Positions 1,752 through 50,388 of a DNA stretch of 64,000 bases are shown here, in pieces; positions within the stretch are counted from its first letter, which is position 1, and the number at the start of each line of letters is the position of its first letter. The position numbers and the translations under genes are program-made. The stretch comes from a virus, in IMG/VR virus record IMGVR_UViG_3300015360_000025. One strand, 5' to 3'. A model generated the notes under the pieces. The model ran no database searches. It was not told where the DNA came from and worked only from the letters and a program-made list of their open reading frames with translations.

Positions 1752-1755
1752 TACC

Positions 1756-2708: not shown

Positions 2709-2716
2709 GGAACTCC

Positions 2717-4335: not shown

Positions 4336-4387
4336 TGTGTAGGTTGCGAGATATCGCGGGAAACAGGCCTTTTCGGCCATGTCCAGT

Positions 4388-4394
4388 CTAATTA
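4388..4394 (+). promoter_or_regulatory. candidate late-promoter motif CTAATTA upstream of sheath
   Basis: Recurrent motif, flanked by the inverted repeat ATGTCC(4379-84)/GGACAT(4404-09). Confidence 0.45.
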
Positions 4395-4459
4395 GAACGT
4401 GAAGGACATCTCTGTATAAGTAGAGTCCGTCAACAAATTTCTTCGGGAGAGAAAATCAA

Positions 4460-6796: not shown

Positions 6797-6878
6797 CGGA
6801 AAAGTCTAGTTGTGACAGTTTCAAAGATGGTGGCCGACATTGGCTATCCTTACAGCATGAGAGGGGAGAGAAAACAAA

Positions 6879-7898: not shown

Positions 7899-7910
7899 AG
7901 AAACGGGTGA

Positions 7911-14923: not shown

Positions 14924-17900
14924 ATGGCACGATTACCCACAAACCTAAAAGAGCTCAAGGCCTACAACGAGTTGCTGGGTGATATCAGCGTCAAGCTCGA
15001 TAAATTGTCTTCACTTGGGGGTGAGCTACTCAAGGTCGACGTTGATAGCTTCTTCCAGGCCAGAGACCACGTCTCCGATTTTGAAGCCAAGCTACGTTCT
15101 GCTGCCAAGATCGCTCCAGAACTGTCTCGGGGTCTTCAGAAGTACGCTGTGATCCAGAAAAAGATCAACGAGATGGAGAAGAACAGAATCAAACTTCAAG
15201 AAAGACTTGAAGCTCTTCAGCTTTCTGCCACTAAGAGGACCAAAGAAGAGAACGAGGAACTCAAGAAGACCGAGGAAAAGATCGGGGAAATTAACAAAGA
15301 GCTTGGGGAGATGAACGAGCAACTCACTAGCTCTAAGATGATTGCTGGTGCCGTTGGGAAGGTCATAGGTGGTTCGGTACTCAACGCCGTAGAGAGTCTC
15401 TCTGCCGCGGCCGTCAACTTTGGAATGGCTGTTACGAGCTGGTCGTTTGATAAAGCGATCGCTGGGCTCAAGCACATTTACGACTTTCAGGAGCGTTCGA
15501 CAAAGGCTGCCGGAACATTCCGACTTGAAATGGGAGCGTTCACTCAGGATATCAAGACAGCTACCAAGACAGCTTCAGCTCTTGACGGACAGATCCGGTC
15601 GTTGACTGGTGGCGACATCGGAGAAGGATTCAAGGCATACAGTGAGTTCTCTGAAGGACTTGGCTTTGTCAATGCTGAGACTGACAAGTTTGCCAAGTCT
15701 GCGTGGGAGATCGGACGGGCGACTGGCGTAGGAACCGAAGCGGTCGGAAAGTTCTATCGGGCTATTAGTATCCAAACGGATTCGTTTGCAGATGGCAGGA
15801 AGGAGACAGCCGAGTTCACGGAAGCGTTGAGAGACGGAGCTAACGAATCAGGGATGAGTGTTGCCAAGTTCTCGAAAGAGATCGCTGGTTCTATGGGATT
15901 CATGGCTCGTTTCGGGAAGGCTGGACGGAAGACCTTCACTGACACGGCCAAGTATGCCGCCAAGTTGGGTGTGTCACTGAAGTCTCTGGAAGCCTTCACA
16001 GATCTCACAGATACGTTCGAGGGGGCCGCGGAAGCATCGGCCAAGATGAACAGCACATTTGGTACCTCCATCAATGCTCTCGACCTCATGCTCGAGCAGG
16101 ATCCTTCAAAGCGATTTGAGCAGGTACGACAGTCTATGTTGGCCCAGGGTCGGACGATGAAGGACCTAATGCCACAGGAGGTGAAGTTTCTCGCCAAGAC
16201 ACTCGCCATCTCAGACGAGGAAGTCCAGGCGGCTATCAGGGAAGGGAAGACGATTGAAGAGGTGGCCAAGGCACGTGAGAAGGCTGGGAGTGAGAAGGAG
16301 AATCAGGAACGTAGTATCCGAAATGCTCTATCGATGACGGCCCAGACCCTTTTCAACTTTAGGCGAGCTTGGGATGGTCTCACTGGAGTTATCACTAAGG
16401 CTCTTGAACCGCTAGCTGGATTCCTTGGTCTCTCTAGCCAAGTCGGTGATAAGACGAAGAAGATCACGACGTTCGGTGGAGTTATGACCGAGATGTTCGC
16501 CCGGTTGGCTAAGGTGATTGAAAAGGTTGCCAATAGTTCTAAGTTTCAGGATTTCCTGAAGATTGTGGCTGCAGACTTGGGTACTCTCTTCAAGAGGATC
16601 GACGAATTTCTTGGTGGACAAGGACTAGACAAGCTCATCGATGGTGTGACATCGACGCTCAAGGTATTCTATGACCTTGTGAAGAAGGCCTTCGGTCTCA
16701 TCTACGAAAAGAAAGATACTATTATCGGATTCTTCAGCAGTCTTGCTGAGAACATGGGTGTAATCCTCGCTCTCTTTGCTGGGGCAAAGTTCGCTAAGAT
16801 GATGCTAGGAGTTGGTCAATTCGGGAAGAGTGCCTTCGATCTATTCAAGGCAATCGGAACAGTAGCTGGTGCGGGAGCTGCTGCGCCCGCTGCGGTGGCA
16901 TCTGCTGCGCCCGCTGCGGTGGCAGCAGGAGCGACTGGAGCAGGAGCCGCTGGAGCAGGAGCCGCTGGAGCAGGAGCTGGTGGAGCTGGTGTTCTAGGCA
17001 TTGGTCTTGGACCACTTCTTGCCATTGTAGCCGCCATTGCAGCAGCTGTATATGTGGCTTACGAAGCAGTCCAGGCTTTTAAGAAAGACGTTGGTGGGCT
17101 AGCGACAAGCATCATGGAGAAGTTCGACAGCATTTCGGAGCGGCTATCGATAATTTTCACTCCTTTCCTCGAGAAGGTAATTTATCCTATCGGTAGGACG
17201 ATTGGCGAGATCTTGGATCCAGTTCTGAAGATGTTCGGAGGAGACGGAACTCTAGGTGAATTCTTCGGGACGGCAGTCTTGAAGTACATCGACGACATGA
17301 TGACTAGTTTCGATCAGTTCCTCACTGTCATCCAGCTTATGATCGAATACGCGGAGGAATTTGCCGGGTTCGTCAGCGACGTCGGAGGGTTTCTCTACGA
17401 GTTGGTTGAACCGACCATTAAAGATATCAAATATCTCTGGGGAGAATTGGGCATATACATCTCTGGAATGTTCACAAGCATCAAGACTGTGGTTGTTGAT
17501 GTCTTCACTGGCATTTTCAAATTTATTACGACGCAGGCCGATCTGATCGTAAGTTTCTGGAAGCAGGCTCTTTCGAAGATCCCGTTCTTCGGTGATTCTT
17601 TCAAAGATGGGCCCAAGGATGATGTAAAGAAAGAACCTGGCTGGCTCGACAGAGTCGTCAAGTTTGGTGCCGATATCGGGACGTCAATCGGGAACGATGT
17701 CACAGCGAAGCTAGACCGTATCGAAGCTACGAAGAATGAGGGACTTCGGAAGAGAGGAAAATCACAGGGCGTAATGAGTATGCCTGAGCTGGATCTCACT
17801 GGTGGAAGGGTTACACCAGCTGCGCCGATATCTCCTGCCAAGAACGAGATGGTGTTTCCAGAGATGGATCTCTCAAGTGGTAGCGTCGCCGCACCTGGGA

Positions 17901-18049
17901 AAGCACCTCCTGGAACGAAACAGAACCTCGCAGACAAAAAGAAGACGGCTGCGGCTGCAGGTGACAAGGTTACGCTAGTGGCGGGAGATGTCTACCTTGA
18001 CGGTGGTCTGGTCGGACGTCACCTGGCAAGACTGGCACGTACTAGCTGA
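14924..18049 (+). CDS. tape measure protein
   Basis: 1041 aa, coiled-coil N-terminus, Ala/Gly-rich amphipathic segments, C-terminal GDVYLDG..VG. Follows the chaperone. Confidence 0.85.
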   Translation: MARLPTNLKELKAYNELLGDISVKLDKLSSLGGELLKVDVDSFFQARDHVSDFEAKLRSAAKIAPELSRGLQKYAVIQKKINEMEKNRIKLQERLEALQLSATKRTKEENEELKKTEEKIGEINKELGEMNEQLTSSKMIAGAVGKVIGGSVLNAVESLSAAAVNFGMAVTSWSFDKAIAGLKHIYDFQERSTKAAGTFRLEMGAFTQDIKTATKTASALDGQIRSLTGGDIGEGFKAYSEFSEGLGFVNAETDKFAKSAWEIGRATGVGTEAVGKFYRAISIQTDSFADGRKETAEFTEALRDGANESGMSVAKFSKEIAGSMGFMARFGKAGRKTFTDTAKYAAKLGVSLKSLEAFTDLTDTFEGAAEASAKMNSTFGTSINALDLMLEQDPSKRFEQVRQSMLAQGRTMKDLMPQEVKFLAKTLAISDEEVQAAIREGKTIEEVAKAREKAGSEKENQERSIRNALSMTAQTLFNFRRAWDGLTGVITKALEPLAGFLGLSSQVGDKTKKITTFGGVMTEMFARLAKVIEKVANSSKFQDFLKIVAADLGTLFKRIDEFLGGQGLDKLIDGVTSTLKVFYDLVKKAFGLIYEKKDTIIGFFSSLAENMGVILALFAGAKFAKMMLGVGQFGKSAFDLFKAIGTVAGAGAAAPAAVASAAPAAVAAGATGAGAAGAGAAGAGAGGAGVLGIGLGPLLAIVAAIAAAVYVAYEAVQAFKKDVGGLATSIMEKFDSISERLSIIFTPFLEKVIYPIGRTIGEILDPVLKMFGGDGTLGEFFGTAVLKYIDDMMTSFDQFLTVIQLMIEYAEEFAGFVSDVGGFLYELVEPTIKDIKYLWGELGIYISGMFTSIKTVVVDVFTGIFKFITTQADLIVSFWKQALSKIPFFGDSFKDGPKDDVKKEPGWLDRVVKFGADIGTSIGNDVTAKLDRIEATKNEGLRKRGKSQGVMSMPELDLTGGRVTPAAPISPAKNEMVFPEMDLSSGSVAAPGKAPPGTKQNLADKKKTAAAAGDKVTLVAGDVYLDGGLVGRHLARLARTS
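16880..16978 (+). repeat. short tandem repeats in tape measure gene
   Basis: GCTGCGCCCGCTGCGGTGGCA x2 (24-nt period), then GGAGCAGGAGCCGCT x2 plus a partial third copy (15-nt period). Confidence 0.85.
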
Positions 18050-22309: not shown

Positions 22310-23689
22310 ATGTACAAATTCATCGATGGGTACCTCGATCGCTCCCATCATTACGAGATCTTTCAGGACGGAATCGTTACTTCTGGCAAACATGATCCTC
22401 TTATCCGAGTTAGAGTTCCGGAACGTATAGTCTGTTTCGATTCACGGAAGATCTTCGCTCTCGGTGTAGAACAGGACTCTCTTTACCCTAGTCCTGTATA
22501 CGACATTAAGCTACTATACAGCCACGATGGAGAGCTCTCTCGCCTGGTTCGTAGCATCGATATCCCGATCCGTGGGGATTACCTTGAGCTGGAGAAACGC
22601 TTCTCTGCGCACACCAAGGCCATTGTTGCAGGTAAGGTGGATGTGGAGACGATCCCACTCCGAGAGTTGATCCCTGATGATCTTCGCCACGAGTATATGT
22701 ACGCTCGACTCTCGGCGATGAGACAGCTTTGGGAGAGGTTGACCGAGAAGGACTTGGTCAACTACGAAAAGAATGTGTATCCGATCTACCAGGACATTCT
22801 CATCATCGAGAAAGCTGGGATAAAGATCGACGAGACGTATGTCGCCTCACAGCTTAAGAGGAATGACTTGGCCTCTCATGAGGACAGTTTTTTCAAGAAC
22901 ATTATTGGAAACACGAAGAACGGCTTCGCGAAGACGAAGATAAGTCCAGTCGGTTCGAAGACTTGGCGGCTTCGTGTGGAGGGTGGATTCAATTGCATGG
23001 CGATCCCACATGGCGTATGCCGCAAGGCGATCGTTAGCAGGTTCGATGGAGGTACAATCACTACATTTGATTTCAATGCTATTGACTACCGTTGTCTGGT
23101 AAGGGCGACAGGCGATGACAAGTTGAACGAATTCTACGGTGGGTGCCGAGACTTTCACACTCGGACCGCGTCAATCCTGGGGGAAGTGACGCCAGAACTG
23201 CGAGTGTCAACAAAGAAGATCGCCTACACACACATCTACGGTGGATCGACCGAGACCCTCCAGAAACAGACGCTTCTTCCCAGAGCAGTCCTCGCCGAAC
23301 GAATACAGAAACTAGACGTGCTGTTCGCCCCAATCACCGACTTCAGGAAGCGCTTGAGCGACCAATCGAGGATCGACGGCTTCCTCATCACTCCTGGCGG
23401 TCACGTCGTGAAGATTGAGAAGGGAGACCACGATGGCAAGATCATCGGACTTTTCGGCCAGACATACAGTTCGTCAATCTTCAATGTGGCGGTGAAGGTT
23501 GTCAACAACATTTTGAAGATTAGGAATAGACAGAGTCGGATAATCTTCACTGTGCACGATGAGATCGTGCTTGATCTCCACCCTGACGAACGGGAGCTAT
23601 TGAAAAATCTGGCAGATGCAATGGAAGTGGCGACAGGATTCGTGGTCAAGGAAAAGGAAGGGAAAAGCTATGGCGAAGCAACCGACTGA
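22310..23689 (+). CDS. polA: family A DNA polymerase (compact)
   Basis: Motif A FDFNAIDYR, DFHT.TA, motif B R...KKIAYTHIYGG, motif C FTVHDEIV. Confidence 0.9.
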   Translation: MYKFIDGYLDRSHHYEIFQDGIVTSGKHDPLIRVRVPERIVCFDSRKIFALGVEQDSLYPSPVYDIKLLYSHDGELSRLVRSIDIPIRGDYLELEKRFSAHTKAIVAGKVDVETIPLRELIPDDLRHEYMYARLSAMRQLWERLTEKDLVNYEKNVYPIYQDILIIEKAGIKIDETYVASQLKRNDLASHEDSFFKNIIGNTKNGFAKTKISPVGSKTWRLRVEGGFNCMAIPHGVCRKAIVSRFDGGTITTFDFNAIDYRCLVRATGDDKLNEFYGGCRDFHTRTASILGEVTPELRVSTKKIAYTHIYGGSTETLQKQTLLPRAVLAERIQKLDVLFAPITDFRKRLSDQSRIDGFLITPGGHVVKIEKGDHDGKIIGLFGQTYSSSIFNVAVKVVNNILKIRNRQSRIIFTVHDEIVLDLHPDERELLKNLADAMEVATGFVVKEKEGKSYGEATD

Positions 23690-25644: not shown

Positions 25645-26835
25645 ATGTCTGACCTGAATCTACCTGACATCCCGCTCGAAGCTGAAGTCCCCGTCGATGT
25701 CGAGGACGTACGTGACGAATCTCTCGGTGCTGCCTCCTACGCCTTCATCGGTTCCGGACAGGGCGGTGGACGTTTGGCCGAGGCGTTCTTTAAGCTCGGA
25801 TACCGGAAGACAATCTGTGTCAACACCGCGAAGCAGGACCTCGCCAGCCTCACGCTCCCTGATGAGCAGAAAGTCCTCATCTCCGCGGGAGAGCAGGGAG
25901 CTGGGAAGGACATGAGAGTCGGAGAGGAGGCTGCCGCTAAGGCCCAGCAACAGATCTTCGAGCTCGTCAAGAAGAAGTTCGGACAGATCGATCACATCTT
26001 CATCTGCATCGGTGCCGGCGGTGGTTCAGGTGGCGGATCCAGCCTGGTCCTGATCGAGACGGCCAAGAAGTACCTCGTCTCCATGGGAATCGATGACGTT
26101 GACCAGAAGGTCGGGGTGGTCATGTCGCTTCCGACCAATGGTGAATGCGCTTCTCCGAACGTCGCCAAGAATGCCCAGTTCCTGGCCGATGCTCTCTGCA
26201 AGTTCGCAAAAGAGAAGCTTATCAGCCCGCTGATCTTCGTCGACAACGACAAGATCCAGAAGATGTACCCGAAGCTGACCGTGAAGGAGTTCTGGCCCAC
26301 CGTCAACGCGACCGTGGCCGGACTCTTCCACGTCTTCAACCTGATCCCCACCAAGGATACGCCATACACCACGTTCGACGCGGCCGATTACGGTTCTCTC
26401 ATGCGCGCCGGCGGGTGCATGATCATGGGTGTGACCTCAGTGCGCGACTTGAAGGATGCCAACGGCATCTCCTCAGCCATCCGCGGGAACCTTGAGAAGA
26501 CCCTCCTCGCTGAGGGATTCGATCTTCGTACGGCCACCCACGCCGCCGCGATCGTCCTTGGTGGTAAGAGCATCTTTGAATCTGCTCCAGGTCTCATGGG
26601 CGCCATCGAGGGTGGGCTGGACACCCTTGCCGCCATGACTGGCAAGGCGATGGTGCACCGTGGCATCTACGAGGACGACAAAGACCGACTGGCGGTCTAC
26701 ACTATGGTCGGAGGGCTCGCCTCTCCGGACAAGAGGATCAAGGCGCTTGGACGCCACCAGGCTCCGAAAGGGGACGAGAAGACTGAATCGGCGATGCCGG
26801 CACCGAAGTTTGGCAGCAGACTTTACGACGAGTGA
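25645..26835 (+). CDS. FtsZ/tubulin-family GTPase
   Basis: GSGQGGGRLAE, VNTA..DL, tubulin signature GAGGGSGGGS, DN.K, FD..DY. Confidence 0.9.
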   Translation: MSDLNLPDIPLEAEVPVDVEDVRDESLGAASYAFIGSGQGGGRLAEAFFKLGYRKTICVNTAKQDLASLTLPDEQKVLISAGEQGAGKDMRVGEEAAAKAQQQIFELVKKKFGQIDHIFICIGAGGGSGGGSSLVLIETAKKYLVSMGIDDVDQKVGVVMSLPTNGECASPNVAKNAQFLADALCKFAKEKLISPLIFVDNDKIQKMYPKLTVKEFWPTVNATVAGLFHVFNLIPTKDTPYTTFDAADYGSLMRAGGCMIMGVTSVRDLKDANGISSAIRGNLEKTLLAEGFDLRTATHAAAIVLGGKSIFESAPGLMGAIEGGLDTLAAMTGKAMVHRGIYEDDKDRLAVYTMVGGLASPDKRIKALGRHQAPKGDEKTESAMPAPKFGSRLYDE

Positions 26836-27233: not shown

Positions 27234-30200
27234 ATGGCCAAGCAGAAATTCCGCCCGCCCAATGAAACCCAAGGACGCGGGTTCCGTGGTGGTCAGGGAT
27301 TCCCCGTACCGATGGATATGAAGATCGGCTTCGGGGACGAGAAGTATGGTGAATTCGATGCCAGCATCGACGAGGATTCGTTCCTTGAAGACATCGTTGT
27401 AAACGTGTCTGCCAGGGTTACCGGTGGACAGCTCAAGAAGAAGGCGAGGTCTAAGGACGTCGTCTCCAAGAAAGGTTCTCCTCTCGACATCGTGGTCAAG
27501 AATGTCCTGGGTGGCCTACTGGGGGAAGCCGATGAGCAGGGCCCAAAAGGGCCACCGAATGGCATCGCCCACATCGAAGATCTAAAGCCTGAAGAGTTCC
27601 TGAGGTTCCTTGAGAAGTACAGAGACCTGCCACTGGATGGCGGACTCGAGGTATCTGAGAAGGTTGATGGCTCGGCGCATATGTCTTTCGGCGTCAAGGG
27701 TGGCCAACTCTGGACCAAGAGTAAGAATGGTACCGTCAAGATGTCTGCAGACGAGTATCCAGATCAACCGATGTTCCGCGCCTTGAAGCAGGCCCACTGG
27801 GCGCTACAAGAACTGACAACAAAGCTCCCGGAAGGTGTGACGTTTGCCTCCGATGTACTTTACACTCGCATTCCGAATTCGATCGAGTACGGCGACAACA
27901 GGATCGTGGTGCACGGAGTTTCTGGAGGAAATGGTGTCGAGGCCAAACAGGTCATTGATCAGCTGTCTACACAGAGTCTTTCTGACGGTGACCAGAATTG
28001 GAAGATCGAGTTCAAACGTGTCTTATCTCCAGATGAAGTTATGGTTGACGTAAAGGAGGAGTTCAACTCCATCTCCGAAATCTACGACGAGCTGAAGCGA
28101 CTCACACCCAACAAGTTGAAGGCGGTTGGCAAAGGACCGTACAAAGCCGCTCTCGCCAAGTTTCAAGCAATCCAGATGGCGCTAAAGAAGAAGCTTGTAG
28201 GACAACTCCGTGGCAAGAGTTCGGCCTACGGTCCAGAGGGTGGTGACGTCGAGGGACTGGTTTTCCGTGACCTGGAATCGGGTGCGATGACGAAGTTGGT
28301 CGACAAAGAATATTTCACCAAGTTGAATAAGTTCCTCTGGCGGTACCGTGAGATGCTCTATAATGGAGTTAAGATCGGCGACCAGTGGCAATTCGGGATA
28401 CTCCAACGCTTCCGGAATGCGATCGCCGACAATGTCCTCGGATCGGCCGTCGCCAAGACACCTGGTTTCGTGGGACAGTTGAAGAAGTTCGGGTATGATC
28501 TCGAGTACCCTCCTGGGGCTAACACTTCTGACAAGAGAGCAGATTTCCTTCTCTCACAGTACATTCAGAAGAATGGTCTCATGTCGGGTGACTACCTGTC
28601 TGGATTTGTGAAAGAGCTGTACACCGTCGCCGACGACTTCAAAGATCTCAGGAAGGAATGGGATACCAAGAAGAATGGTAACCTGACTCACCATGTGAAG
28701 GATGATCTCGGACATGTCATCAAGTCCATCACGATGGATCAGATCATCAAGGACAGAACAGAAGAGGCGTTCAAGGGTATGGAAGAATTCCTGCTCGGAA
28801 CTGGGAAGGCAATCGGTGAGATCGGCAAGATGAAGGGAGATTTAACAAAGAAGACCGCGCTGCTCAAGCTCATGATGGGACAGGGAAGATTGGAAAAGTT
28901 AGCGACAGAGGCTAGCCCAGGACTCCGCGAATCTGAGTCGCGTGTCGGATCCATCGAACCGTTGGTCCAGAAGAATATGCCGTTGCTGGCGAAGCATGGG
29001 TTTGACATAACCCGTCCGTCCGCCGATTGGCTTCCGAACGCCATCGGATCAGGAGCTTCAGGCACTGCATACAGCATGAAGGACGGTCGCGTTCTGAAGA
29101 TCACTACTGACGATACTGAAGCTCGGGCTAGCAACCACCTCAAAGGAAAGAAGCTCAAGTACGCTGCGCGAATCGACAACGTCTTCAGGTTCAAAGAAGA
29201 GCACGGTATTCCGGGTCGTCCTGTGAAGATGAAGTACTACGGGATCGTCCAGGAGAAAGTTAAACCTCTTTCGTCACCTGTCAAGCAAGAGCTAACAACC
29301 ATCCTTCGACTCGCAGAAGATCTATTCGGATTCGGTTGGATCACTAATGGTCGTGAGAAGAACGAGGCGCACGCAAAAGAATCTATTGCTGGTAATCCTG
29401 ATCTGACGGCAGATATCACGCGCCTTCTGAAGGGTATGAAGCAGCTCAAGCTCTGGGACATGCTGGAAGAGCTTCAGACCAATGGGGTCGAATGGCAGGA
29501 CCTCCATCCCGGTAACGTCATGATGCGCGGGAAGGACCTGGTCGCCATCGATCTTGGTGTCTCCCGCTCCCCTGGAGCAGAGCCAGATATCCTTGAATCA
29601 ATCCAGTACCTAGGAGAAGCCAACACTGGCGACGTAAAGTCAATTCTCAATAAGTTTGAACCTCTCCTTGCGAAGAACGGTATTAATGCCGGTGCGGAAC
29701 TGGGGTCCGGAAGTCAAGCGATCGTCTTCGACGCCGGTGGAGGGAAGGTCCTGAAGATTACTGAGGATCAGTCGGATGCTCAGGCCGCCCTCAAGGCGAA
29801 GGAATCTAATCTAAAGTACGTCGCCAAGGTCTTCAATGTCTTCAAGTTCCCCGGGGAAGACTACTACGGAATCGTCCTCGAGAGACTGGCCCACATTCCT
29901 GGTTCTGAGAGCGCTCCTGAGAGCACGAGCGGGGAGGCGGCGATCTTGGAGGAAGCCATTGACGAGTCTTTCCTCTTCGCTGCTTCGCGGGGAAAGTTCA
30001 TCCGTTCATGGCAGGAAGCTTTCAAAGCGATGAACGCCATTCTCAAGACCAGAATGTCTCTTGTCGGGACGCTCGCCGGTCAGGACATGCAGGAGAACTT
30101 CGCCGCTTCGATCGCCACACTCAAGAAGTACAACATCGATAAGATCATCGACGACATCGGTGCAGTCGGGATTGAGTTCGGTGACTGGCACACGGGCAAC

Positions 30201-31892
30201 ATCATGAAGCGGGGATCTGATTACGTTCTCGTCGATCTGGGTTACTCGAAGGTCCACGGTGGACGTGAGCCGGATGTGCTCGAAAAGAAGGTGGTCGAGG
30301 GGGTGCTGAAGACTCTCCGAGAGGCACGGGCTGACCAGGTAGGGGTTACCATCGGTCGCTTCCAACCGTTCCACAAGGGTCACGCAGAGATCATCCGTGG
30401 ACTCGCCAAGAAATTCGACAAGGTCATCGTCATCGTGGCCGGGAATACCAAGGACAAGAAGAATCCGTTCTCCCTCGAGACGAGGATGCAGTTGATGCAG
30501 AAGTCTCTACCGGACGTCATGTCCAATGTGGAGATCCACAAGGCTGAGTACGGAGGGAAGGGAAGCGGGTACATTCCGGGAGTCCTCTCAGACATCGTGA
30601 AGAACAAGAGGTCTTCGGTCGAGGCAGATACTGCCATCCACATTCTGGTCGGTCCGGATCGGTTCGCCGAGATCAAAAAGCAGTTGGACCACGCCAAATT
30701 GGCCAAGGAGCAGGGGACCGAATTGCTATTTGATCCCAACATGGCTGAGCTCAACCAACTCCCTGGGGTCAAGAATGACGACGATACGGATCGGATCTCC
30801 GGCACCAAGGTGCGTGAAGCTCTCGTTGCCGACCAGAAAGACGTCGTCCAGAGCATGATGGATCCACATCTGGTCTCGAATCCTGCCGACTTTGAGAATC
30901 TCTACGTTAAGATGCGTTCGGAACTGACGGCAGGGTTGGCGGGAAAGCGAGCACGACCGACCGATCCAAATCCCGCAGGTCTTGAAGAAGATCTGAAAGA
31001 CATCGGAAGCGAAGCAGGCGTTCAGGTCGTCCTTCAGGCGAATGCCGAGAAGCTCTTGGCTTCACCGTGGAAGATCGACGTCAACAAGCTTACCCAACTC
31101 GGATCTGGACAGGAGGGGATCGCCTACGACATCGGAGGCGGGAAGGTCATGAAGGTCTCGGCTGACGAGAAGGAAGCCGAGACCAGCTATGGCATCAAGG
31201 GCAAGACGAACCTGAAGCACGTCGTCCATGTCTTTGATGTCTTCCGCTTCATGGACACCCCTGGCATCGTGCAGCCGGTCTACTGTCTCATCACCGAGAA
31301 GCTCATCAAACTGACTGCACCCGAACAGAAGGAATTCGACGACGTCACCGACGAGTGTCAGGCGCAGATGGGCAAGAAGCGGTACATCGACGCCGTCTGG
31401 ACCGGAGACTGGAACCACTTCGTCCAAGAAATGCGATCTGCCTTCCAGGAAGACATCGCCAAAGAGTCGCACCTGCCGCCCGACCATCCACGTCTTGTCA
31501 GGGTCCTCGAATCTCGCATGCAGAGATACCTGCCGATCATGCAGAAGTTCAAGATGTCCGACATGATGTCCGAGCTAAAGGGATTGGGGATCAAGTTCGC
31601 CGACTACCACGGTGGAAACCTGATGAAGAGGGGAGGTGACTATGTCATCAACGATCTTGGCCGTTCGGAATCTACCAGCAATAAAGTACCACCGATGATG
31701 GAAGACATAGTCTCCAAGATCATCGAGGACTTCGGATTCGGTTCGTCTGCCGTCGGAATGAAGGCTGGTAGCTCCGCGTGGTCGACTTCCAAGAACCAAG
31801 TCGATCCTAATTCCAAGGAACTCTGGCAGAACCAACTCAATCGTATGGAACCGTTCCACTCAGGATCGGCGGACATTAAGAGACAGAAGTGA
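27234..31892 (+). CDS. multidomain protein: ligase-like nucleotidyltransferase + kinase + kinase + HxGH (NMNAT/cytidylyltransferase-like) + kinase
   Basis: EKVDG, EGLVFR, KLVDK. Three GSGxxG/VxK/DxHxxN/DLG sets (DLHPGN, DWHTGN, DYHGGN). GRFQPFHKGH and ISGTKVRE. Confidence 0.85.
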   Translation: MAKQKFRPPNETQGRGFRGGQGFPVPMDMKIGFGDEKYGEFDASIDEDSFLEDIVVNVSARVTGGQLKKKARSKDVVSKKGSPLDIVVKNVLGGLLGEADEQGPKGPPNGIAHIEDLKPEEFLRFLEKYRDLPLDGGLEVSEKVDGSAHMSFGVKGGQLWTKSKNGTVKMSADEYPDQPMFRALKQAHWALQELTTKLPEGVTFASDVLYTRIPNSIEYGDNRIVVHGVSGGNGVEAKQVIDQLSTQSLSDGDQNWKIEFKRVLSPDEVMVDVKEEFNSISEIYDELKRLTPNKLKAVGKGPYKAALAKFQAIQMALKKKLVGQLRGKSSAYGPEGGDVEGLVFRDLESGAMTKLVDKEYFTKLNKFLWRYREMLYNGVKIGDQWQFGILQRFRNAIADNVLGSAVAKTPGFVGQLKKFGYDLEYPPGANTSDKRADFLLSQYIQKNGLMSGDYLSGFVKELYTVADDFKDLRKEWDTKKNGNLTHHVKDDLGHVIKSITMDQIIKDRTEEAFKGMEEFLLGTGKAIGEIGKMKGDLTKKTALLKLMMGQGRLEKLATEASPGLRESESRVGSIEPLVQKNMPLLAKHGFDITRPSADWLPNAIGSGASGTAYSMKDGRVLKITTDDTEARASNHLKGKKLKYAARIDNVFRFKEEHGIPGRPVKMKYYGIVQEKVKPLSSPVKQELTTILRLAEDLFGFGWITNGREKNEAHAKESIAGNPDLTADITRLLKGMKQLKLWDMLEELQTNGVEWQDLHPGNVMMRGKDLVAIDLGVSRSPGAEPDILESIQYLGEANTGDVKSILNKFEPLLAKNGINAGAELGSGSQAIVFDAGGGKVLKITEDQSDAQAALKAKESNLKYVAKVFNVFKFPGEDYYGIVLERLAHIPGSESAPESTSGEAAILEEAIDESFLFAASRGKFIRSWQEAFKAMNAILKTRMSLVGTLAGQDMQENFAASIATLKKYNIDKIIDDIGAVGIEFGDWHTGNIMKRGSDYVLVDLGYSKVHGGREPDVLEKKVVEGVLKTLREARADQVGVTIGRFQPFHKGHAEIIRGLAKKFDKVIVIVAGNTKDKKNPFSLETRMQLMQKSLPDVMSNVEIHKAEYGGKGSGYIPGVLSDIVKNKRSSVEADTAIHILVGPDRFAEIKKQLDHAKLAKEQGTELLFDPNMAELNQLPGVKNDDDTDRISGTKVREALVADQKDVVQSMMDPHLVSNPADFENLYVKMRSELTAGLAGKRARPTDPNPAGLEEDLKDIGSEAGVQVVLQANAEKLLASPWKIDVNKLTQLGSGQEGIAYDIGGGKVMKVSADEKEAETSYGIKGKTNLKHVVHVFDVFRFMDTPGIVQPVYCLITEKLIKLTAPEQKEFDDVTDECQAQMGKKRYIDAVWTGDWNHFVQEMRSAFQEDIAKESHLPPDHPRLVRVLESRMQRYLPIMQKFKMSDMMSELKGLGIKFADYHGGNLMKRGGDYVINDLGRSESTSNKVPPMMEDIVSKIIEDFGFGSSAVGMKAGSSAWSTSKNQVDPNSKELWQNQLNRMEPFHSGSADIKRQK

Positions 31893-40335: not shown

Positions 40336-43056
40336 ATGACCACGGAAATCTACGAGCCGGCTGGCTTTGCGCTGGAGATATTCAAGAAGAGGTACGCCAG
40401 ACACGAGAATGAAAGCTGGCAGGAGGCATGCGATCGTGTGGCTTCCCACATGGCTGCAGCCGAAACGAACGGTCACGTCGCCGAGTACAAAGAACTCTTC
40501 AGTGACATCCTGAAGAAGAATCTCTTCTTTCCTGGCGGACGAATCTGGTACGGATCTGGCAGACCGAAAGCCCAACTCCTGAACTGTTTTGTCATACCTA
40601 CGAAGGATAGTCGCGAAGGTTGGGGAAAAACACTCCACGACACTGTGGTGATTTCAGGAACTGGAGGAGGAGTCGGTTGTAACTACTCTCCCACCCGTCC
40701 GAGAAACTCAAAGATTGAAGGGACCGGAGGAATAGCGACCGGTGCCGTCAGTGAAATGCGGATGGTGAATAGCATCGGAGACGAGCTCAAGGCTGGAGGT
40801 GGTCGCCGTATCGCTCTGATGATGGCTCTGAACCTGACGCACGGAGACATCCTAGAGTTCCTCGACGCCAAGCTCGACAAGAACCAGCTGAACAACGCCA
40901 ATGTCAGTGTCATCTTCGATGAGGATCCAGAGCGTTTCTTCAAGTTGGTCAAAGAGGAAGGTATCCTCGAACTCAAGCATAACGGCAAAGTCGTTGGCTC
41001 CGCTTCGGCCAAAGAGCTCTGGCACAAGATCGTCAGCAACGCGCTGAAGGGTGGTGAGCCAGGCCTTCTGAATGGCTACCTCGCCAACAAGATGTCAAAC
41101 ATCTGGTACTTCAGACCACTCATCTGTACGAATCCGTGTATCACCGGTGACACTCTTATCGCCGTCGCGGACGGGAGAAATGCCGTCAGCATCAAACAGC
41201 TCGCTGACGAAGGCAATAACGTCCCTGTCTACTCGACGAATGTCGAGACCGGGCAGGTCGAAATCAAGACCGGGCGGAACCCTAGAAAGACCGGCGCGTC
41301 GAAAGAAGTCTGGAAACTCACGCTTGATGACGGTTCTATTCTCCGAGCGACACCGAATCACAAGATTATGAGACTTGACAGACAGTATGTCGAGCTGAAA
41401 GACCTGAAGCCCGGAGACAGTGTGTTCCCGTTTAACACGTTCAGTTCGAACGGCTACAGACAGGTTTGTGGTACGGGTGCACAGATGTCAGGAGGAGCTC
41501 GCAGGAATCGTAGGCAGTACAGACTGATTAACGAGTTCTTCAACGGGCCGACGGACGCGAAACGCTTCGCTATCCATCACGCCAACTTCGACTGTACTGA
41601 CGATAGCATCGATAACTTGAAGATGTTGGAACACGAAGAACACCGGCGTCTTCACACCGAGAAGATGATGGGAGCGAAGAACCAATATCATCGAATGGAC
41701 GAGCAGTGGAAGAATGACTTCGCTTCTCACCCCGGAGAAGAGAACGGTCGTTTTTCGGGACACACGAACGAGGAACTTGTCGTCGAAGGACGTGAGGTCT
41801 TCGAAAAGAACGGGAAGTTGACGCAGGAACTCTGGGTCGAGCACGCGGAGAACAAGGGTCTTCCACAGTTTCTCGGCAACGACTTCCGATTTGGGTCATT
41901 CACGAATTTCAGGAACCAGGTCGTGACCAATCACCGGGTCGTCTCTGTCGAGTTTGACTGTCACGAAGATGTCTACAACATCACCGTCGATGACAATCAC
42001 AACTACCATGTCGTCACTAGCGGAGACGGCGAAAAGAACGTCGTGTCTTCTGGTCTCTGCGTCAAGAATTGCGGGGAGATCTGGCTGGTCGAGTACGACT
42101 GCTGTGACCTCGGTTCGCTCGTGCTTCCTCGGTTCATCTACAATGATGGTGGTAAGCTGAAGATCGATCGTCCTCTTATGAAGAGGGTCATCAGCATCGC
42201 GATCAGATTTCTCGACAACGTCCTGACCGCGAACAACTACCCGATGCTTGAGATCAAGGAGATGTGTTCCATGATCCGTAGAATCGGTCTTGGTGTCACC
42301 GGACTTGACACGATGCTGATGGAGTTAGGGCTGAAGTACAACTCTTCCGAAGCTCTCGAGTACGTCGACAGCTTGATGAACTTCATCAAGAACTGCGCCT
42401 ACGAGGCAGGTATCGAGCTCGCCAAAGAGAAGGGAAGCTTCCCGGCATTCGACGCCGAGAAGTTCCTGCAGAGTGGATTCATGAAGACCATGAAGCCTTC
42501 TATCAGGAGTGACATCCGAAAGCACGGGATCAGGTTCTGCGCTGGCCTTACCTTACCACCTGTCGGTACAGGTTCGATGGTCTGCAACGTCGACAGCGGG
42601 ATCGAGAAGGCCTTCGGTCCGGCATGGAACCGCTGCTTCCGAGATGGGGACAACCTCAAGAATGAGATCGTTATCCATCCAATCTTCAAGAGGAAGTATC
42701 TTGCTGGAGAAGATGTCTCTCACTTCCAGACCGTCTGGGACCTGAGCATGCGTGACCATTTCGAGATGCAACGGGTCTGCCAGAAGCACATCGACAACGC
42801 GGTTAGTAAGACGATCAACCTCCCTCCAGGAACGTCCATCCAGGAGCTCTCAGAACTCTACATGGAGTTCTTCCCTGATCTCAAGGGTGTGACCGTGTAC
42901 CCCGAGGGCAGCCGAGAGAACCAACCAATCACTCCACTCTCTGTTGCCGACGCAATCGCCCACATCGATGCCGAGGTAGCCGCAGGTCCAACCAGCGACG
43001 ACTCGTGCCGTGGTGGGGTTTGTGATGTCCCGTGGGCCAAAGATGTGGTAAAATAA
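40336..43056 (+). CDS. nrdJ: ribonucleotide reductase, class II-like, containing an intein
   Basis: PGGRI, LLNCFV, GGVG, EPG. NPC/GEI is split by the intein. C.LGS, RRIGLG..G, P.GT.S, IDNAVSKTINLP. No beta subunit nearby. Confidence 0.85.
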   Translation: MTTEIYEPAGFALEIFKKRYARHENESWQEACDRVASHMAAAETNGHVAEYKELFSDILKKNLFFPGGRIWYGSGRPKAQLLNCFVIPTKDSREGWGKTLHDTVVISGTGGGVGCNYSPTRPRNSKIEGTGGIATGAVSEMRMVNSIGDELKAGGGRRIALMMALNLTHGDILEFLDAKLDKNQLNNANVSVIFDEDPERFFKLVKEEGILELKHNGKVVGSASAKELWHKIVSNALKGGEPGLLNGYLANKMSNIWYFRPLICTNPCITGDTLIAVADGRNAVSIKQLADEGNNVPVYSTNVETGQVEIKTGRNPRKTGASKEVWKLTLDDGSILRATPNHKIMRLDRQYVELKDLKPGDSVFPFNTFSSNGYRQVCGTGAQMSGGARRNRRQYRLINEFFNGPTDAKRFAIHHANFDCTDDSIDNLKMLEHEEHRRLHTEKMMGAKNQYHRMDEQWKNDFASHPGEENGRFSGHTNEELVVEGREVFEKNGKLTQELWVEHAENKGLPQFLGNDFRFGSFTNFRNQVVTNHRVVSVEFDCHEDVYNITVDDNHNYHVVTSGDGEKNVVSSGLCVKNCGEIWLVEYDCCDLGSLVLPRFIYNDGGKLKIDRPLMKRVISIAIRFLDNVLTANNYPMLEIKEMCSMIRRIGLGVTGLDTMLMELGLKYNSSEALEYVDSLMNFIKNCAYEAGIELAKEKGSFPAFDAEKFLQSGFMKTMKPSIRSDIRKHGIRFCAGLTLPPVGTGSMVCNVDSGIEKAFGPAWNRCFRDGDNLKNEIVIHPIFKRKYLAGEDVSHFQTVWDLSMRDHFEMQRVCQKHIDNAVSKTINLPPGTSIQELSELYMEFFPDLKGVTVYPEGSRENQPITPLSVADAIAHIDAEVAAGPTSDDSCRGGVCDVPWAKDVVK
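41137..42069 (+). mobile_element. intein with HNH homing endonuclease (311 aa)
   Basis: Starts CITGDTLI, block B LRATPNHKI, HNH IHH.N....D...NL..L...EH..LH, ends DVYNITVDDNHNY...VKN followed by extein Cys. Confidence 0.92.
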
Positions 43057-47481: not shown

Positions 47482-50388
47482 ATGATCAAGGACTTCGCCA
47501 GCTTTCACAACCACAGTCACTTCTCCGTAATGGATGGTATCAGCCTTCCTGAGGAGATGATCAAGACTGCTAAGGCGAAGGGGTTAAAGTCCATTGCGAT
47601 TACAGACCACGGGCACTGTCACGGTCATGCCGACTTCTTCCTGTTCGGGAAGAAGCACGGCGTCCGTACTGTGTTCGGAGTCGAGGCTTACGTTATCCAC
47701 GACTTGAAGGAGTGGCAGGACCTCAAGGACTCAGCCGGCTTCGAGGACACACAGGAACGGGACTCCAACACTGCCGGTGATGACGAGGGGAAGAAACTCT
47801 CGAAGCAACTCTACCGTAAGGGACACCTAGTCCTCCTGGCGTGCAACAGGGAGGGTTTGGCGAACCTGTACCAGCTGACTTACAAGGCCCACAAGGATGG
47901 GTTTTACGCCAAACCCAGGATGGACAAGAAGATGCTGGCCCAACATTCTAAGGGCGTCATCGCGACGTCTGCATGCATGGGCGGTGTCATCGCCAACAAG
48001 TGCTGGGACCTGAAGAACGGACGAGGAGACTTCCAAGACATAGTCAACGAGGCGAAGGAGTTCGACGAGATCTTTGGCCGAGGACGTTTCTTCCTGGAAC
48101 TCCAGTTCAACGAACACGACGGACAAAGGTTCATCAACGAATTGCTTGTACGAGTTCACAAAGAGACAGGGATCCCGCTGACCGTAACTACCGACTCTCA
48201 CTACACTCAGCCAGAAGAGTGGAAGGCTCAAGAGCTCCTCTACATGCTCCGGTCCAATAAGACCGTGACGACGCGTGGGGACAAGTGGGACTTCCAGGTC
48301 AAGCAGCTCTACATCAAATCTCCCGAAGAGATGTGGCAGACGTTTGAGAAGTTCGGCGGGATGCTTGAACCGAAGATCGCGCTTGAAGCATTCCAGAACA
48401 CGATGCTCATCGACAGTCTGGTCGACGACTACGAGCCAGACACACACAAGCGACTACCTTCCCTTCCGTACGAAGACCCGTTCATGGAGATGATGGCTCG
48501 GGCCGTGAAGGGGCTCAAGGCCCACGGTCTGGCGCAGAAGGACGAGTACAAGACCCGTCTCCTTCACGAGATGAAGATTATCAAGGAGAAGGGGTTCGCC
48601 AACTACTTCCTCATCACCCAGCAGATCATCGAAGAGGCGCGCAAGACCATGATGGTCGGAGAGGGCCGTGGTTCGTCCGCGGCGTCACTCGTCTGCTACT
48701 GCTTGGGGATAACCGACCTTGATCCCATCGAACACGACCTGCTATTCGAGCGCTTCATGGACCCATCCAGAACTGAGGAGCCCGACATCGACATTGATTT
48801 TGAGGACGTTGAAGCGACTAAGGACATGCTTCGCCGAATGTTCGGCGAACAGAATGTAGCGTGTCTTTCCTCGTATGGTACCTTTCAGATCAAGGGTCTT
48901 CTGAAAGATGTTGGCCGGGTTTATGACCTGCCTGTTAAGGTCGTCAACGACGCCAACAAGAAGATCGAGAAAGAACTAAAGGTCCTCTACCTAAACCAGG
49001 ACAAGAGCACCCTCGTCATCAAGTTGGAAGACGTGCAAAGAGTCAGTCAGACATTCCGAGAGCTGGTTGAGAAGTATCCGCTGGTAGGTGAGCACCTGAC
49101 CAAACTTTACGGACGCAACCGACATTGCAGTCGACACGCCGCAGGTGTCATCATCGGCGATAACCTCCCGGCCGAGACTGCATTGTGGGTCCAAAAAGAC
49201 AAAGATACGGGGAAGCAGATCGTCCAGGCGTCCTTCACTGAAGGCATCGTCAACAAGAATGTCTCGGCGATGGGCTTCACCAAGTTCGACATCCTCTCCA
49301 TCGCCACACTCAAGGTGATACACTATGCCCTCAAGCTAATCTCCGAGAGGACCGGACGTCCAATAACGGAACTCCGAGAGATGGTCCGTTCGAAGAACAT
49401 GAAGTTGAATGACCCGAAGATCATGGAGCACTGCTTCTGGAACGGGAACTTTGCCGGGGTCTTCCAGTTCACTGAAAAGGGGATTCGACGTGTGGCGAAG
49501 AACGTCCATCCCGATACCTTTGTCGACATCTCAGCCATCTCTTCCATCTACCGTCCAGGTCCATTGGCTGGCGGCTTTGACAAACTCTACGCTCACAACA
49601 AACACCATCCTGAAGATGTGACCTACGAGCATCCGCTGCTTGAGTCAATTCTGAAGAAGACACGTGGTTGTATCGTGTTCCAAGAACAGCTGATGCAGAT
49701 CTGCAACTCTCTGGGCAAGATGTCGTGGAAAGACGTGAATGCCGTACGCAAGGTTCTACTGAAGAAGGACAAGAGCAAGACAGAAGAGTTCCTTAAGTCA
49801 GAGAACGAACGTCTCGCCGGACTGTTCTACAAGGGGTGCGAAGAGAACGGCTACCCTCGATACATTGTGACCGGGACTGAAAAGAAGAAGGACGAGAAGG
49901 GTGAAGAGAAGGAAGTTGAGATCAGAATTCCGAAGGCGGAGAAGCTCTGGAATGACCTGCTTGCGTTCGGTGGCTACGGATTCAACAAAAGTTTGCACTT
50001 TGCTCAACGAATTGCTATTTATAGTAACGGGAACGTAATCTCTAAGGAAATCAAGGACGTACAAAAAGGTGATTTAGCATTTTCTCGTGATGAAAAAAGC
50101 GGCAAAATATTTTTAGAACCAATCGTTGCTCTTCATGACCACGGAGAACTTGAGTTAATAGAATTTACGATGGATGATGGGAGTACTGTGCGATGCACGG
50201 CAAATCACAAGTTCAGGACGACGACCGGAGAGATGTCACGAATCTCAGAGATTATGGCCAGAGACTTGGAGATCGTCTCGTTTGCAGACTTTGCGCCACT
50301 AGTGTCAGATCAGCTTCTCATTGGGAAGCAGGACGTTGTAAACAAGCTCATGTCTGTAAATGTGGAGCAGAGTTCATCGGAACGATAG
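47482..50388 (+). CDS. dnaE: DNA polymerase III alpha, N-terminal part + N-intein
   Basis: PHP HNHSHFS..DG, TDHG, GRGSSAASLV.Y.L.IT..DP, PDIDIDF, KFDIL, GYGFNK followed by intein SLHF... Confidence 0.95.
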   Translation: MIKDFASFHNHSHFSVMDGISLPEEMIKTAKAKGLKSIAITDHGHCHGHADFFLFGKKHGVRTVFGVEAYVIHDLKEWQDLKDSAGFEDTQERDSNTAGDDEGKKLSKQLYRKGHLVLLACNREGLANLYQLTYKAHKDGFYAKPRMDKKMLAQHSKGVIATSACMGGVIANKCWDLKNGRGDFQDIVNEAKEFDEIFGRGRFFLELQFNEHDGQRFINELLVRVHKETGIPLTVTTDSHYTQPEEWKAQELLYMLRSNKTVTTRGDKWDFQVKQLYIKSPEEMWQTFEKFGGMLEPKIALEAFQNTMLIDSLVDDYEPDTHKRLPSLPYEDPFMEMMARAVKGLKAHGLAQKDEYKTRLLHEMKIIKEKGFANYFLITQQIIEEARKTMMVGEGRGSSAASLVCYCLGITDLDPIEHDLLFERFMDPSRTEEPDIDIDFEDVEATKDMLRRMFGEQNVACLSSYGTFQIKGLLKDVGRVYDLPVKVVNDANKKIEKELKVLYLNQDKSTLVIKLEDVQRVSQTFRELVEKYPLVGEHLTKLYGRNRHCSRHAAGVIIGDNLPAETALWVQKDKDTGKQIVQASFTEGIVNKNVSAMGFTKFDILSIATLKVIHYALKLISERTGRPITELREMVRSKNMKLNDPKIMEHCFWNGNFAGVFQFTEKGIRRVAKNVHPDTFVDISAISSIYRPGPLAGGFDKLYAHNKHHPEDVTYEHPLLESILKKTRGCIVFQEQLMQICNSLGKMSWKDVNAVRKVLLKKDKSKTEEFLKSENERLAGLFYKGCEENGYPRYIVTGTEKKKDEKGEEKEVEIRIPKAEKLWNDLLAFGGYGFNKSLHFAQRIAIYSNGNVISKEIKDVQKGDLAFSRDEKSGKIFLEPIVALHDHGELELIEFTMDDGSTVRCTANHKFRTTTGEMSRISEIMARDLEIVSFADFAPLVSDQLLIGKQDVVNKLMSVNVEQSSSER
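49990..50388 (+). mobile_element. split intein, N-half (132 aa)
   Basis: Starts SLHFAQRI after GFNK. Block B DGSTVRCTANHKFRT. Ends at stop TAG 50386. Confidence 0.85.

Follow-up and report, generated by a model that had tools for sequence, protein, structure and literature searches.

Candidate prohead-protease motifs at the domain junctions of a five-enzyme protein from an uncultured jumbo phage

Introduction

The internal head proteins of phage T4 (IPI-III and Alt) bear capsid-targeting sequences that are cut by the prohead protease gp21, which prefers L/I-x-E at the P3 and P1 positions. Their leaders comprise 10-20 residues, and each of these proteins is a single effector. In phiKZ, 201phi2-1 and SPN3US, a gp21-related protease (gp175/gp245) cuts after Glu within an x-X-E motif; processing affects many of the head proteins that are ejected, and a number of these are cut at several sites (PMC10052503, PMC5694885). 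Iyer, Burroughs, Anand, de Souza and Aravind described in 2017 the polyvalent proteins of phages and conjugative elements, for which their paper predicts delivery together with the DNA (PMC5512222). The paper names metallopeptidases embedded in the polyvalent proteins, rather than the prohead protease, as the processing enzymes and states that their 2H domains never associate with RNA ligases (PMC5512222).

Here we report on a protein of an uncultured, ~190-kb, T4-like-headed, tubulin-encoding jumbo myophage, in which five catalytic domains of three fold types are joined in one polypeptide, with intact active-site motifs and short disordered linkers between them. Judging from its sequence, there is an even chance that this one protein is packed in the capsid, cut by the prohead protease into separate enzymes and injected.

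Results

The gene runs from 27234 to 31892 on the plus strand of the window, by which we mean the whole 64,000-nucleotide stretch of IMGVR_UViG_3300015360_000025 that was analysed. It is a single intact gene, as the original prediction held: the ORF check found it to be read without interruption into 1552 aa, and a Shine-Dalgarno sequence (AAGAGG) stands 7 nt 5' of its ATG. The database copy of the protein (P0002) comprises 1526 aa and begins at Met27; the 1552-aa start is favoured over Met27 because the N-terminal motif, RG-x-(P)G-[YF]-P-V-P (aa 22-26), is conserved in homologues (45/84, mostly near the N-terminus). The window holds no second copy of this motif, and we found no cultured phage carrying the protein family.

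The gene shares an operon with tubulin, lying between the tubulin gene and recombination/replication genes, and adjoins UvsX, RNA ligase, exonuclease and DnaB. This setting favours an alternative in which the protein would be an uncleaved multi-enzyme scaffold made in the cytoplasm during infection, serving for example RNA repair or NAD-related chemistry together with the kinases, while the motifs would be conserved helices of linkers or leaders, retained either because folding needs them or as recombination joints for shuffling; we regard such a scaffold as possible, at a rather low probability. The locus directly follows the tail and baseplate genes, an indirect sign of virion packaging and injection. 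The gene is located outside the head operon, an observation that speaks against packaging and cutting; the genes of the T4 internal proteins are likewise scattered.

AlphaFold2 models built from 16-sequence alignments were used to define the domain limits, which agreed to ~10 residues with those predicted earlier. All features lie on the plus strand. The disordered leader (aa 1-109, 27234..27560; pLDDT <50) ends with LLGE98 followed by Ala and precedes the RNA-ligase-fold covalent nucleotidyltransferase (aa 110-557, 27561..28904). Linker 1 (aa 558-572, 28905..28949; pLDDT <50 over aa 560-572) contains A-T-E559 and LRE566, the latter followed by Ser. Kinase 1 (aa 573-789, 28950..29600), which ends P-D-I-L-E788, is separated from kinase 2 (aa 797-1018, 29622..30287), which ends P-D-V-L-E1017, by linker 2 (aa 790-796, 29601..29621; pLDDT <50) with LGE795 before Ala. 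Linker 3 (aa 1019-1032, 30288..30329) is a low-confidence helix (pLDDT <50) carrying VVE1022 before Gly and LRE1030 before Ala, and leads to the NadM/NMNAT-like HIGH nucleotidyltransferase (NTase; aa 1033-1235, 30330..30938). After linker 4 (aa 1236-1251, 30939..30986; pLDDT <50) comes LEE1252 before Asp, and kinase 3 (aa 1252-1499, 30987..31730) closes with P-P-M-M-E1490 and a helix ending IIE1498. The C-terminal tail with the stop codon (aa 1500-1552, 31731..31892) is disordered (pLDDT <50), and its motif, AGSS-x-WS ... ELWQNQL, follows the last kinase in ~28/84 homologues.

The five enzymes named in the original prediction all hold: one domain has an RNA-ligase fold, three are kinases that are paralogues of each other and keep their catalytic motifs intact, and one is an HxGH transferase resembling NMNAT. 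The ligase domain carries motif I (SEK143VDGS), motif IV (E340-G341) and K354 in the motif V region; K143, D145, G146, E218, E340, G341 and K354 are invariant in homologues, and Foldseek matched the domain to Rnl3 (8uce, 2vug) and T4 Rnl2 (2hvr) with probability 1.0. The PF09414 RNA_ligase profile did not match the 1552-aa protein. Of the stand-alone ligase relatives, P0092 reached 29.1 bits, above the 27-bit cut-off, and the others scored 17-26; the domain is therefore a divergent branch of the ATP-dependent RNA ligase superfamily.

The NTase domain, which has a Rossmann-like fold with GRFQPFH1047KGH1050 and ISGTKVR1194, matches PF01467 (E 8e-14, 52 bits; cut-off 21), archaeal NMNAT 1f9a among PDB sequences and archaeal NMNAT 1m8k in Foldseek (target-normalised TM-score 0.71); PPAT scores almost equal the NMNAT scores in both the PDB sequence and Foldseek comparisons, and NMN is a candidate substrate. 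Ligase and NTase also occur together as a two-domain protein (P0087, P0090), which suggests that the two domains work jointly and is in keeping with a cytoplasmic scaffold. Their role is likely to be RNA-end repair or nucleotide-cofactor chemistry. Homologues further contain InPase (PF18823), 2H (PF13563/PF10469) and SLT (PF01464) domains, weak T4 Rnl1-like matches and CCA-adding-type domains (two marginal matches).

Kinases 1, 2 and 3 are paralogous (E 1e-25 to 1e-29), and all three retain the Gly loop, Lys, the catalytic D-x4-N and D-x-G; in kinase 1, which matched MAPK, YabT and PknS in Foldseek, the Gly loop, K622, D756-x4-N761 and D773-L-G are invariant in homologues. The activation segment and C-lobe helices F-I are absent from all three, each domain ending 13-15 residues past D-L-G. 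They likely phosphorylate host targets. E788 and E1017, at the ends of kinases 1 and 2, are invariant in homologues, the kinase-end P-x-h-L-E docks on the kinase body in the AlphaFold2 models, and stand-alone kinases keep it at their C-terminus. P-x-h-L-E thus belongs to the kinase fold itself and has a structural role even if it should also be cut, and this role again suits a scaffold. Because of this kinase-end element, about half of the junction motifs described as doubled in the original prediction need not be cut sites. Stand-alone kinases also have N-terminal helical leaders, which end IFE↓A, LTE↓S or LGE↓D (the arrow marks the putative cut).

The gp13-like protein of the window recurs, with an identical sequence, on a contig that has Portal_T4, Peptidase_S77 and Gp23 just upstream; the Peptidase_S77 gene (PF03420, 198 aa, T4 gp21-type) lies ~6 kb before the window. 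Relatives G001 and G002 also have Peptidase_S77, and G002 combines it with a 43%-identical homologue. On the basis of these gene assignments, the phage has a prohead protease of the T4 gp21 type. L-N-E and L-M-E occur in capsid proteins of relatives at the place where T4 gp23 is cut, and the junction motifs match what the phage's own prohead protease would be expected to cut.

LGE98, LRE566, ILE788, LGE795, VLE1017, LRE1030, LEE1252, MME1490 and IIE1498 were all found as claimed; for the claimed LATE559, the junction Glu motif is present, but it reads A-T-E and its Leu occupies P4. Over its full length the protein contains 35 [LIMV]-x-E where ~26.5 are expected, and this total is nothing unusual. 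What stands out is their placement: the 97 linker residues hold 10/35 h-x-E (binomial p = 4e-5) and 6/11 h-x-E-[AGS] (p = 2e-5), and these ten h-x-E are all found within disordered stretches or at their borders. Inside the folded domains the motif is not depleted (observed/expected 0.95), another point in favour of an uncleaved scaffold.

We compared the 25 aa before each of 320 domain starts with the domain cores in 84 homologues of shuffled domain order. The density of h-x-E-[AGS] was 2.39 per 100 aa before domains and 0.36 in cores, 6.7 times higher, while control motifs, which had D, Q or K instead of Glu or ran in reverse order, gave 0.7-1.0 times. The motif was denser before than inside domains in 77 of the 80 informative homologues. 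Ala was the dominant residue after the Glu, at 35/54 unique junctions before ligase, 34/73 before NTase and 34/132 before kinase domains. In most homologues, L-x-E↓A occurs at a variable 8-14 residues before the ligase domain, with unrelated sequence upstream. All 74 NTase domains have h-x-E within 25 aa upstream, 58/74 in the form h-x-E-[AGS]; L-x-E-A keeps a constant spacing of 2-3 residues there and may belong to the NTase domain itself. E1252 is invariant in 9 colinear homologues, P0016 begins exactly at an M-N-E-A junction, and an entire extra domain is inserted between LGE↓S and MTE↓A in P0005. Loss of the motifs from homologous junctions had been named beforehand as a refuting outcome; they are kept despite the domain shuffling. 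More than 80 homologues thus conserve L/I/V-x-E, in most cases with Ala, Gly or Ser next to it, immediately ahead of their domains, irrespective of which domain lies upstream. A purely structural linker leaves unexplained the strict Glu (Asp and Gln are not enriched), the following Ala and the variable distance to the domain.

The motif pattern by itself would also suit a true polyprotein that another Glu-specific protease, of host or phage, processes in the cytoplasm with no link to the capsid, and a second protease, of Trypsin_2 type, is encoded at 2717-3490 of the window. We consider this very improbable, as the motif fits the T4 gp21 P3/P1 preference and that protease family is present in the phage. 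Neither does the 1552-aa protein contain a peptidase domain of its own (Pfam at E up to 1; no spare folded domain in the models).

Discussion

In the mechanism that we propose, the N-terminal leader would take the protein into the prohead core, where the prohead protease would cleave on the C-terminal side of the Glu at each junction; we expect cuts after E98, E566, E788 and/or E795, E1017 and/or E1030, E1252, and E1490 and/or E1498. The freed enzymes would leave with the DNA and act ahead of phage gene expression. In homologues P0059 and P0026, an SLT lytic transglycosylase, a peptidoglycan-cutting enzyme, lies between kinase and NTase; this counts for virion delivery, and a peptidoglycan hydrolase amid cytoplasmic enzymes would make little sense in a scaffold that never leaves the cytoplasm. 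A stand-alone ligase-like distant relative in PA5oct (26% identity) has no MS-detected flag in virions, though its neighbours have one, which fits the scaffold better.

The protein could also be packaged and ejected with only the leader removed, or with nothing cut, so that the five enzymes would stay in one chain, like N4 vRNAP or P1 DarB. LGE98↓A within the 109-residue disordered leader is compatible with this, and N4 vRNAP is packaged unprocessed according to the polyvalent-protein paper (PMC5512222). All gp21-family cleavages found in SPN3US remove propeptides and none splits enzymes, which counts against release by cutting: 13/14 mapped gp245 cleavages remove N-terminal propeptides, and the other removes the protease's own C-terminal propeptide (PMC10052503). 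Nevertheless, we deem an uncut or leader-trimmed chain unlikely, since the internal junctions share the motif and Ala preference of the leader site, and the disorder of their linkers would make them accessible to a protease.

Returning to capsid processing, we suggest more tentatively, at somewhat less than even chances, that the prohead protease of this clade of T4-like jumbo phages doubles as a polyprotein-processing enzyme. A leader-like linker with L-x-E↓A at its end would accompany each enzyme module. A single hypervariable locus could then exchange modules between polyproteins and genes that stand alone, without any module losing its ability to be packaged, set free in the capsid as a separate enzyme and injected. 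If true, this would be a tailed-phage counterpart to the polyprotein strategy of eukaryotic viruses. One capsid-targeted gene would supply the cell, as infection begins, with finished enzymes in a set that can change, and it would explain how domain shuffling at one locus retunes the counter-defence set. The role of the gp21-family protease would widen from propeptide removal to enzyme release, and in uncultured T4-like phages L-x-E↓A would offer a simple means to predict which effectors are injected and where their mature ends lie. The rule is testable with recombinant protease and junction peptides, without the uncultured phage.

Single domains of the protein recall known pathways. The RNA-ligase-fold domain is common to T4 RNA repair (Pnkp plus Rnl1/Rnl2), whereas the Pnkp kinase has a P-loop fold and the present kinases a protein-kinase fold. 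Phage NAD+ salvage (NadM/NadV) likewise uses an NMNAT-fold domain with GRFQPFHxGH and ISGTxxR; no NadV or Nudix partner came up incidentally in the present analysis. Unlike in both pathways, the present domains are all fused into one chain, and their substrates are predicted.

The original prediction that no described system has this architecture does not stand as worded, as injected multi-domain polyvalent phage proteins were described in 2017; term searches of that paper did not find an RNA-ligase-like, kinase and NMNAT-like combination (PMC5512222). Polyvalent proteins likewise join unrelated enzymes in a large phage protein, and that paper describes a truncated kinase type (no C-lobe, a Gln conserved in the final strand of the N-lobe) that the present kinases fit (PMC5512222). 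This kinase type, InPase, 2H and SLT, all of which the paper describes in polyvalent proteins, occur in the present family as well (PMC5512222). The polyvalent proteins with the kinase type, InPase and 2H are predicted to be virion-borne, a further point for virion delivery. The zincin-like metallopeptidase (MPTase) hub is frequent and not obligatory in polyvalent proteins, and the present protein is without it. New relative to the published polyvalent proteins would be the proposed processing of junctions at L-x-E↓A by the prohead protease.

The present phage shares with T4 and its internal head proteins a protease of the gp21 family, a portal of T4 type, a capsid protein of gp23 type, leaders ending h-x-E↓A and gene positions scattered outside the head operon. 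In contrast to T4, the leader here is ~100 residues long and contains a G-Y-P-V-P motif, and the release of five enzymes would involve as many as six internal sites. The motif of phiKZ, 201phi2-1 and SPN3US is A/S/G-x-E, whereas that found here is L/I/V-x-E. Cuts in SPN3US remove or fragment propeptides (PMC10052503), whereas the separation of catalytic domains by such cuts is proposed only for the present protein.

Architecture of the putative polyprotein

The polyprotein gene (27234..31892, +) is an open reading frame of 1552 uninterrupted codons with a ribosome-binding site, AAGAGG, 7 nt 5' of the ATG. Its database copy, P0002, has 1526 aa and starts at Met27; the longer start is favored because a motif at aa 18-26 is kept near the N-terminus of many homologues. 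Of 84 homologues, 45 have the signature R-G-x-P-G-[YF]-P-V-P-x-x-M (window 27297-27311, aa 22-26). It usually begins 13-50 residues into the protein, but where additional domains lie at the N-terminus it is internal (aa 160-530). The signature may serve in targeting or docking.

Two AlphaFold2 models built from 16-sequence alignments (mean pLDDT 74 and 77) revealed five folded domains separated by stretches of pLDDT < 50. A disordered leader (aa 1-109) precedes domain 1 (aa 110-557), domain 2 (aa 573-789), domain 3 (aa 797-1018), domain 4 (aa 1033-1235) and domain 5 (aa 1252-1499), with linkers at aa 560-572, 790-796, 1019-1032 and 1236-1251. A tail at aa 1500-1552 (window 31731-31889), also disordered in the model, contains the pattern 'G-x-[KR]-A-G-S-S-x-W-S ... 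D-P ... E-L-W-Q-N-Q-L', which follows the last kinase in approximately 28 of the 84 homologues. Sequence motifs, Pfam and fold matches of the folded domains confirmed the original prediction that five enzymes are joined in one chain.

Domain 1 bears the lysine motif of ligases and capping enzymes (SEK143VDGS), with E340-G341 and K354 invariant, and its fold matches archaeal Rnl3 and T4 Rnl2; the polyprotein itself gave no Pfam match in this domain. An exhaustive profile-free search with domain 1 retrieved 283 relatives. Among them are stand-alone proteins, 370-500 aa long, that touch PF09414 (RNA_ligase), and two-domain proteins (P0087, P0090) that pair a ligase of this type with a HIGH nucleotidyltransferase. 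Pseudomonas phage PA5oct encodes a stand-alone ligase-like relative (150524-151864; 446 aa, fold match E 1e-17), surrounded by genes whose products are annotated as structural and MS-verified.

Domains 2, 3 and 5 are paralogous protein kinases by fold, sharing 29-32% identity (E 1e-25 to 1e-29) in a segment-wise comparison, whereas self-BLAST of the whole polyprotein did not detect the repeats. Each retains an intact Gly loop, Lys, D-x-H-x-G-N and D-L-G, and ends 13-15 residues past D-L-G, matching the C-lobe-less kinase family described for polyvalent proteins by Iyer et al. (PMC5512222). Domain 4 is a HIGH nucleotidyltransferase (NTase; PF01467, E 8e-14) in which GRFQPFHKGH and ISGTKVR are signatures of archaeal NMNAT. 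Against the M. thermautotrophicus NMNAT it reached a target-normalised TM-score of 0.71, with PPAT close behind.

A conserved motif at the domain junctions

A word-indexed search identified 64 relatives, 900-2500 aa long and in many cases encoded on contigs of 187-201 kb; an exact-pattern search of viral contigs with a single protein found no match, whereas an alignment-based search did. The relatives contain one to five kinase copies (171 in total) in differing domain orders, and some include an InPase, 2H phosphoesterases or an SLT lytic transglycosylase. Weak T4 Rnl1-like matches also occurred, and two marginal hits point to a CCA-adding-type nucleotidyltransferase. Slot and neighbors of the gene are identical at twelve loci, and it is thus hypervariable within a conserved frame.

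The raw number of [LIMV]-x-E triplets in the polyprotein is ordinary (35, with about 26.5 expected), but their placement is not: pLDDT defines 97 linker residues, and these hold ten of the 35 triplets (p = 4e-5) and six of the 11 h-x-E-[AGS] motifs, where h is L/I/M/V (p = 2e-5). We then placed the ligase, kinase and NTase domains by HMMs in 84 long homologues and counted motifs by position. The density of h-x-E-[AGS] in the 25 aa before domains exceeded that in domain cores 6.7-fold (2.39 vs 0.36 per 100 aa), whereas the ratio was 0.8 for both h-x-D-[AGS] and h-x-Q-[AGS], 1.0 for h-x-K-[AGS] and 0.7 for the reversed [AGS]-E-x-h. Of 80 informative proteins, 77 showed this enrichment; for the remaining proteins of the window the motif density is 0.24 per 100 aa. 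Among unique junction 15-mers, P3 is mostly Leu, and Ala follows Glu in 35/54 ligase, 34/73 NTase and 34/132 kinase junctions.

Before the ligase, L-x-E-A lies 8-14 variable residues upstream of the domain, and the sequence preceding it is unrelated between homologues, being a leader, a kinase end, a 2H domain or an unknown domain; the related protein P0016 starts at M-N-E-A. Loss of the motif at homologue junctions would have refuted the original prediction, a check that it clearly survived. Domain architecture and conserved junction motif are solid. In the related protein P0005 (L001 10001-15040), an extra domain of about 130 aa (aa ~105-235) is inserted precisely between the leader-junction motifs LGE|S and MTE|A; it looks ParB-like, with a ParB/Srx-like 'LVAGNTRL' motif.

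A reading of these motifs purely as cut sites is weakened by three observations. P-x-h-L-E closes every kinase, forms a beta-bridge to the kinase body in both models (pLDDT 71-76) and is retained at the C-terminus of stand-alone kinases of 226-241 aa; it is part of the kinase fold. Ahead of the NTase, L-x-E-A keeps a constant spacing of 2-3 residues to the beginning of the domain and may cap its N-terminus. Finally, h-x-E-[AGS] is not depleted in folded domain cores (observed/expected 0.95).

Stand-alone kinases (P0183-P0185) start with amphipathic leaders ending in IFE|A, LTE|S and LGE|D, which look like the polyprotein linkers and the N-termini of small ORFs in the window; this likeness points to the linkers as leaders that were kept. 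The small ORFs, at 264, 12442 and 24341 (+), begin with amphipathic helices ending in h-x-E-A (VLKE|A, ILKE|A and MME|A, for example).

The prohead protease

We found no prohead protease inside the window. A 24.9-kb contig encodes a gp13-like protein identical to that of the window and has, just upstream, Portal_T4, three unknown genes, Peptidase_S77 (198 aa), further unknowns, bS21, a 403-aa gene and Gp23 in this order. A T4 gp21-type protease is therefore encoded by this phage, some 6 kb ahead of the window. The 52-aa bS21-like gene lies inside this head operon, between the protease and gp23 capsid genes, about 3-4 kb before the window. Peptidase_S77 is also present in the relative phages G001 and G002, the latter encoding a 43% identical homologue of the polyprotein. 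Their capsid proteins have L-N-E and L-M-E roughly at the T4 gp23 cut position, L-T-E|A.

In T4, gp21 cleaves capsid-targeting leaders off Alt and the internal proteins (PMC5694885). A related protease in SPN3US cleaves after A-x-E. Fourteen of its sites have been mapped: at 13 of them an N-terminal propeptide is removed, and at the other the C-terminal propeptide of the protease itself (PMC10052503). The window also encodes a trypsin-like serine protease (2717-3490, +; PF13365 on the 24.9-kb contig; phrog_9683) with a hydrophobic, lipoprotein-like N-terminus, between the gp13-like neck and sheath genes.

Genomic context

The window's genes form a single co-oriented myophage block. It opens with the gp13-like neck protein, sheath, tube, baseplate hub and tape measure (600-18049), continues with unknown proteins, then a DNA polymerase A fragment and an HD hydrolase, and reaches a short operon (start at 24341, +) in which the 1552-aa protein is encoded together with a tubulin homologue. 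Beyond this operon lie the genes for UvsX, a small RNA ligase, a 5'-3' exonuclease, DnaB, ribonucleotide reductase and a DNA polymerase. The tubulin/PhuZ-like gene (25645-26835, +; PF00091 in the 80%-identical L001 orthologue) lies two genes 5' of the polyprotein gene, in a phage with a T4-type head, and is absent from some syntenic relatives (L003, L006, L012, L014). The 459-aa polymerase A-like fragment (22310-23689, +; PF00476 in its orthologue), between tail-associated genes and the HD hydrolase, is kept in all syntenic relatives; the main polymerase is distant (47482-50388). HNH-endonuclease-like inserts in the ribonucleotide reductase large subunit (40336-43056, +) and in the G002 portal gene (L084 11662-14781, -) resemble inteins or homing elements; both host genes are essential.

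Among cultured phages, a DNA search with the polyprotein gene gave no match, and a protein search found no gene similar to the full-length protein, returning NTase-domain matches only; the ligase domain gave weak stand-alone matches. In 185,579 prokaryote species genomes only the NMNAT domain was matched, which offers no host clue.

The T4 late promoter TATAAATA has a single match, on the wrong strand. A candidate shared upstream element, CCTCTANWT, has seven matches (2.8 expected), four of which (222, 11464, 13869 and 24317; +) lie 20-50 nt 5' of start codons, including the operon start at 24341. We dropped it as evidence for late expression because the orthologous locus L001 lacks it.

Possible virion delivery and relation to known systems

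On analogy and comparative patterns, the best-fitting explanation is that the polyprotein would be packaged in the head and cut there by the S77 protease, and that the enzymes would then be injected; we give this scheme about an even chance. Its main rival is a multi-enzyme that stays uncleaved in the cytoplasm. The best indirect argument for virion delivery is the SLT peptidoglycan hydrolase embedded between kinase and NTase in two homologues (P0059 aa 1390-1498; P0026 aa 1241-1338), since this domain is useful only outside the cytoplasm. Against delivery, the polyprotein gene lies outside the head operon, and the stand-alone ligase-like protein of PA5oct (26% identical) bears no MS-detected flag, whereas six neighboring genes do.

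Neither our literature search nor a term search of PMC5512222 returned a description of prohead-protease processing at domain junctions or of a ligase, kinase and NMNAT-like architecture. That phages may inject multi-enzyme proteins is, as a general idea, already published, and the predicted injected polyvalent proteins have their kinase type, the InPase and the 2H domains in common with the polyprotein family.
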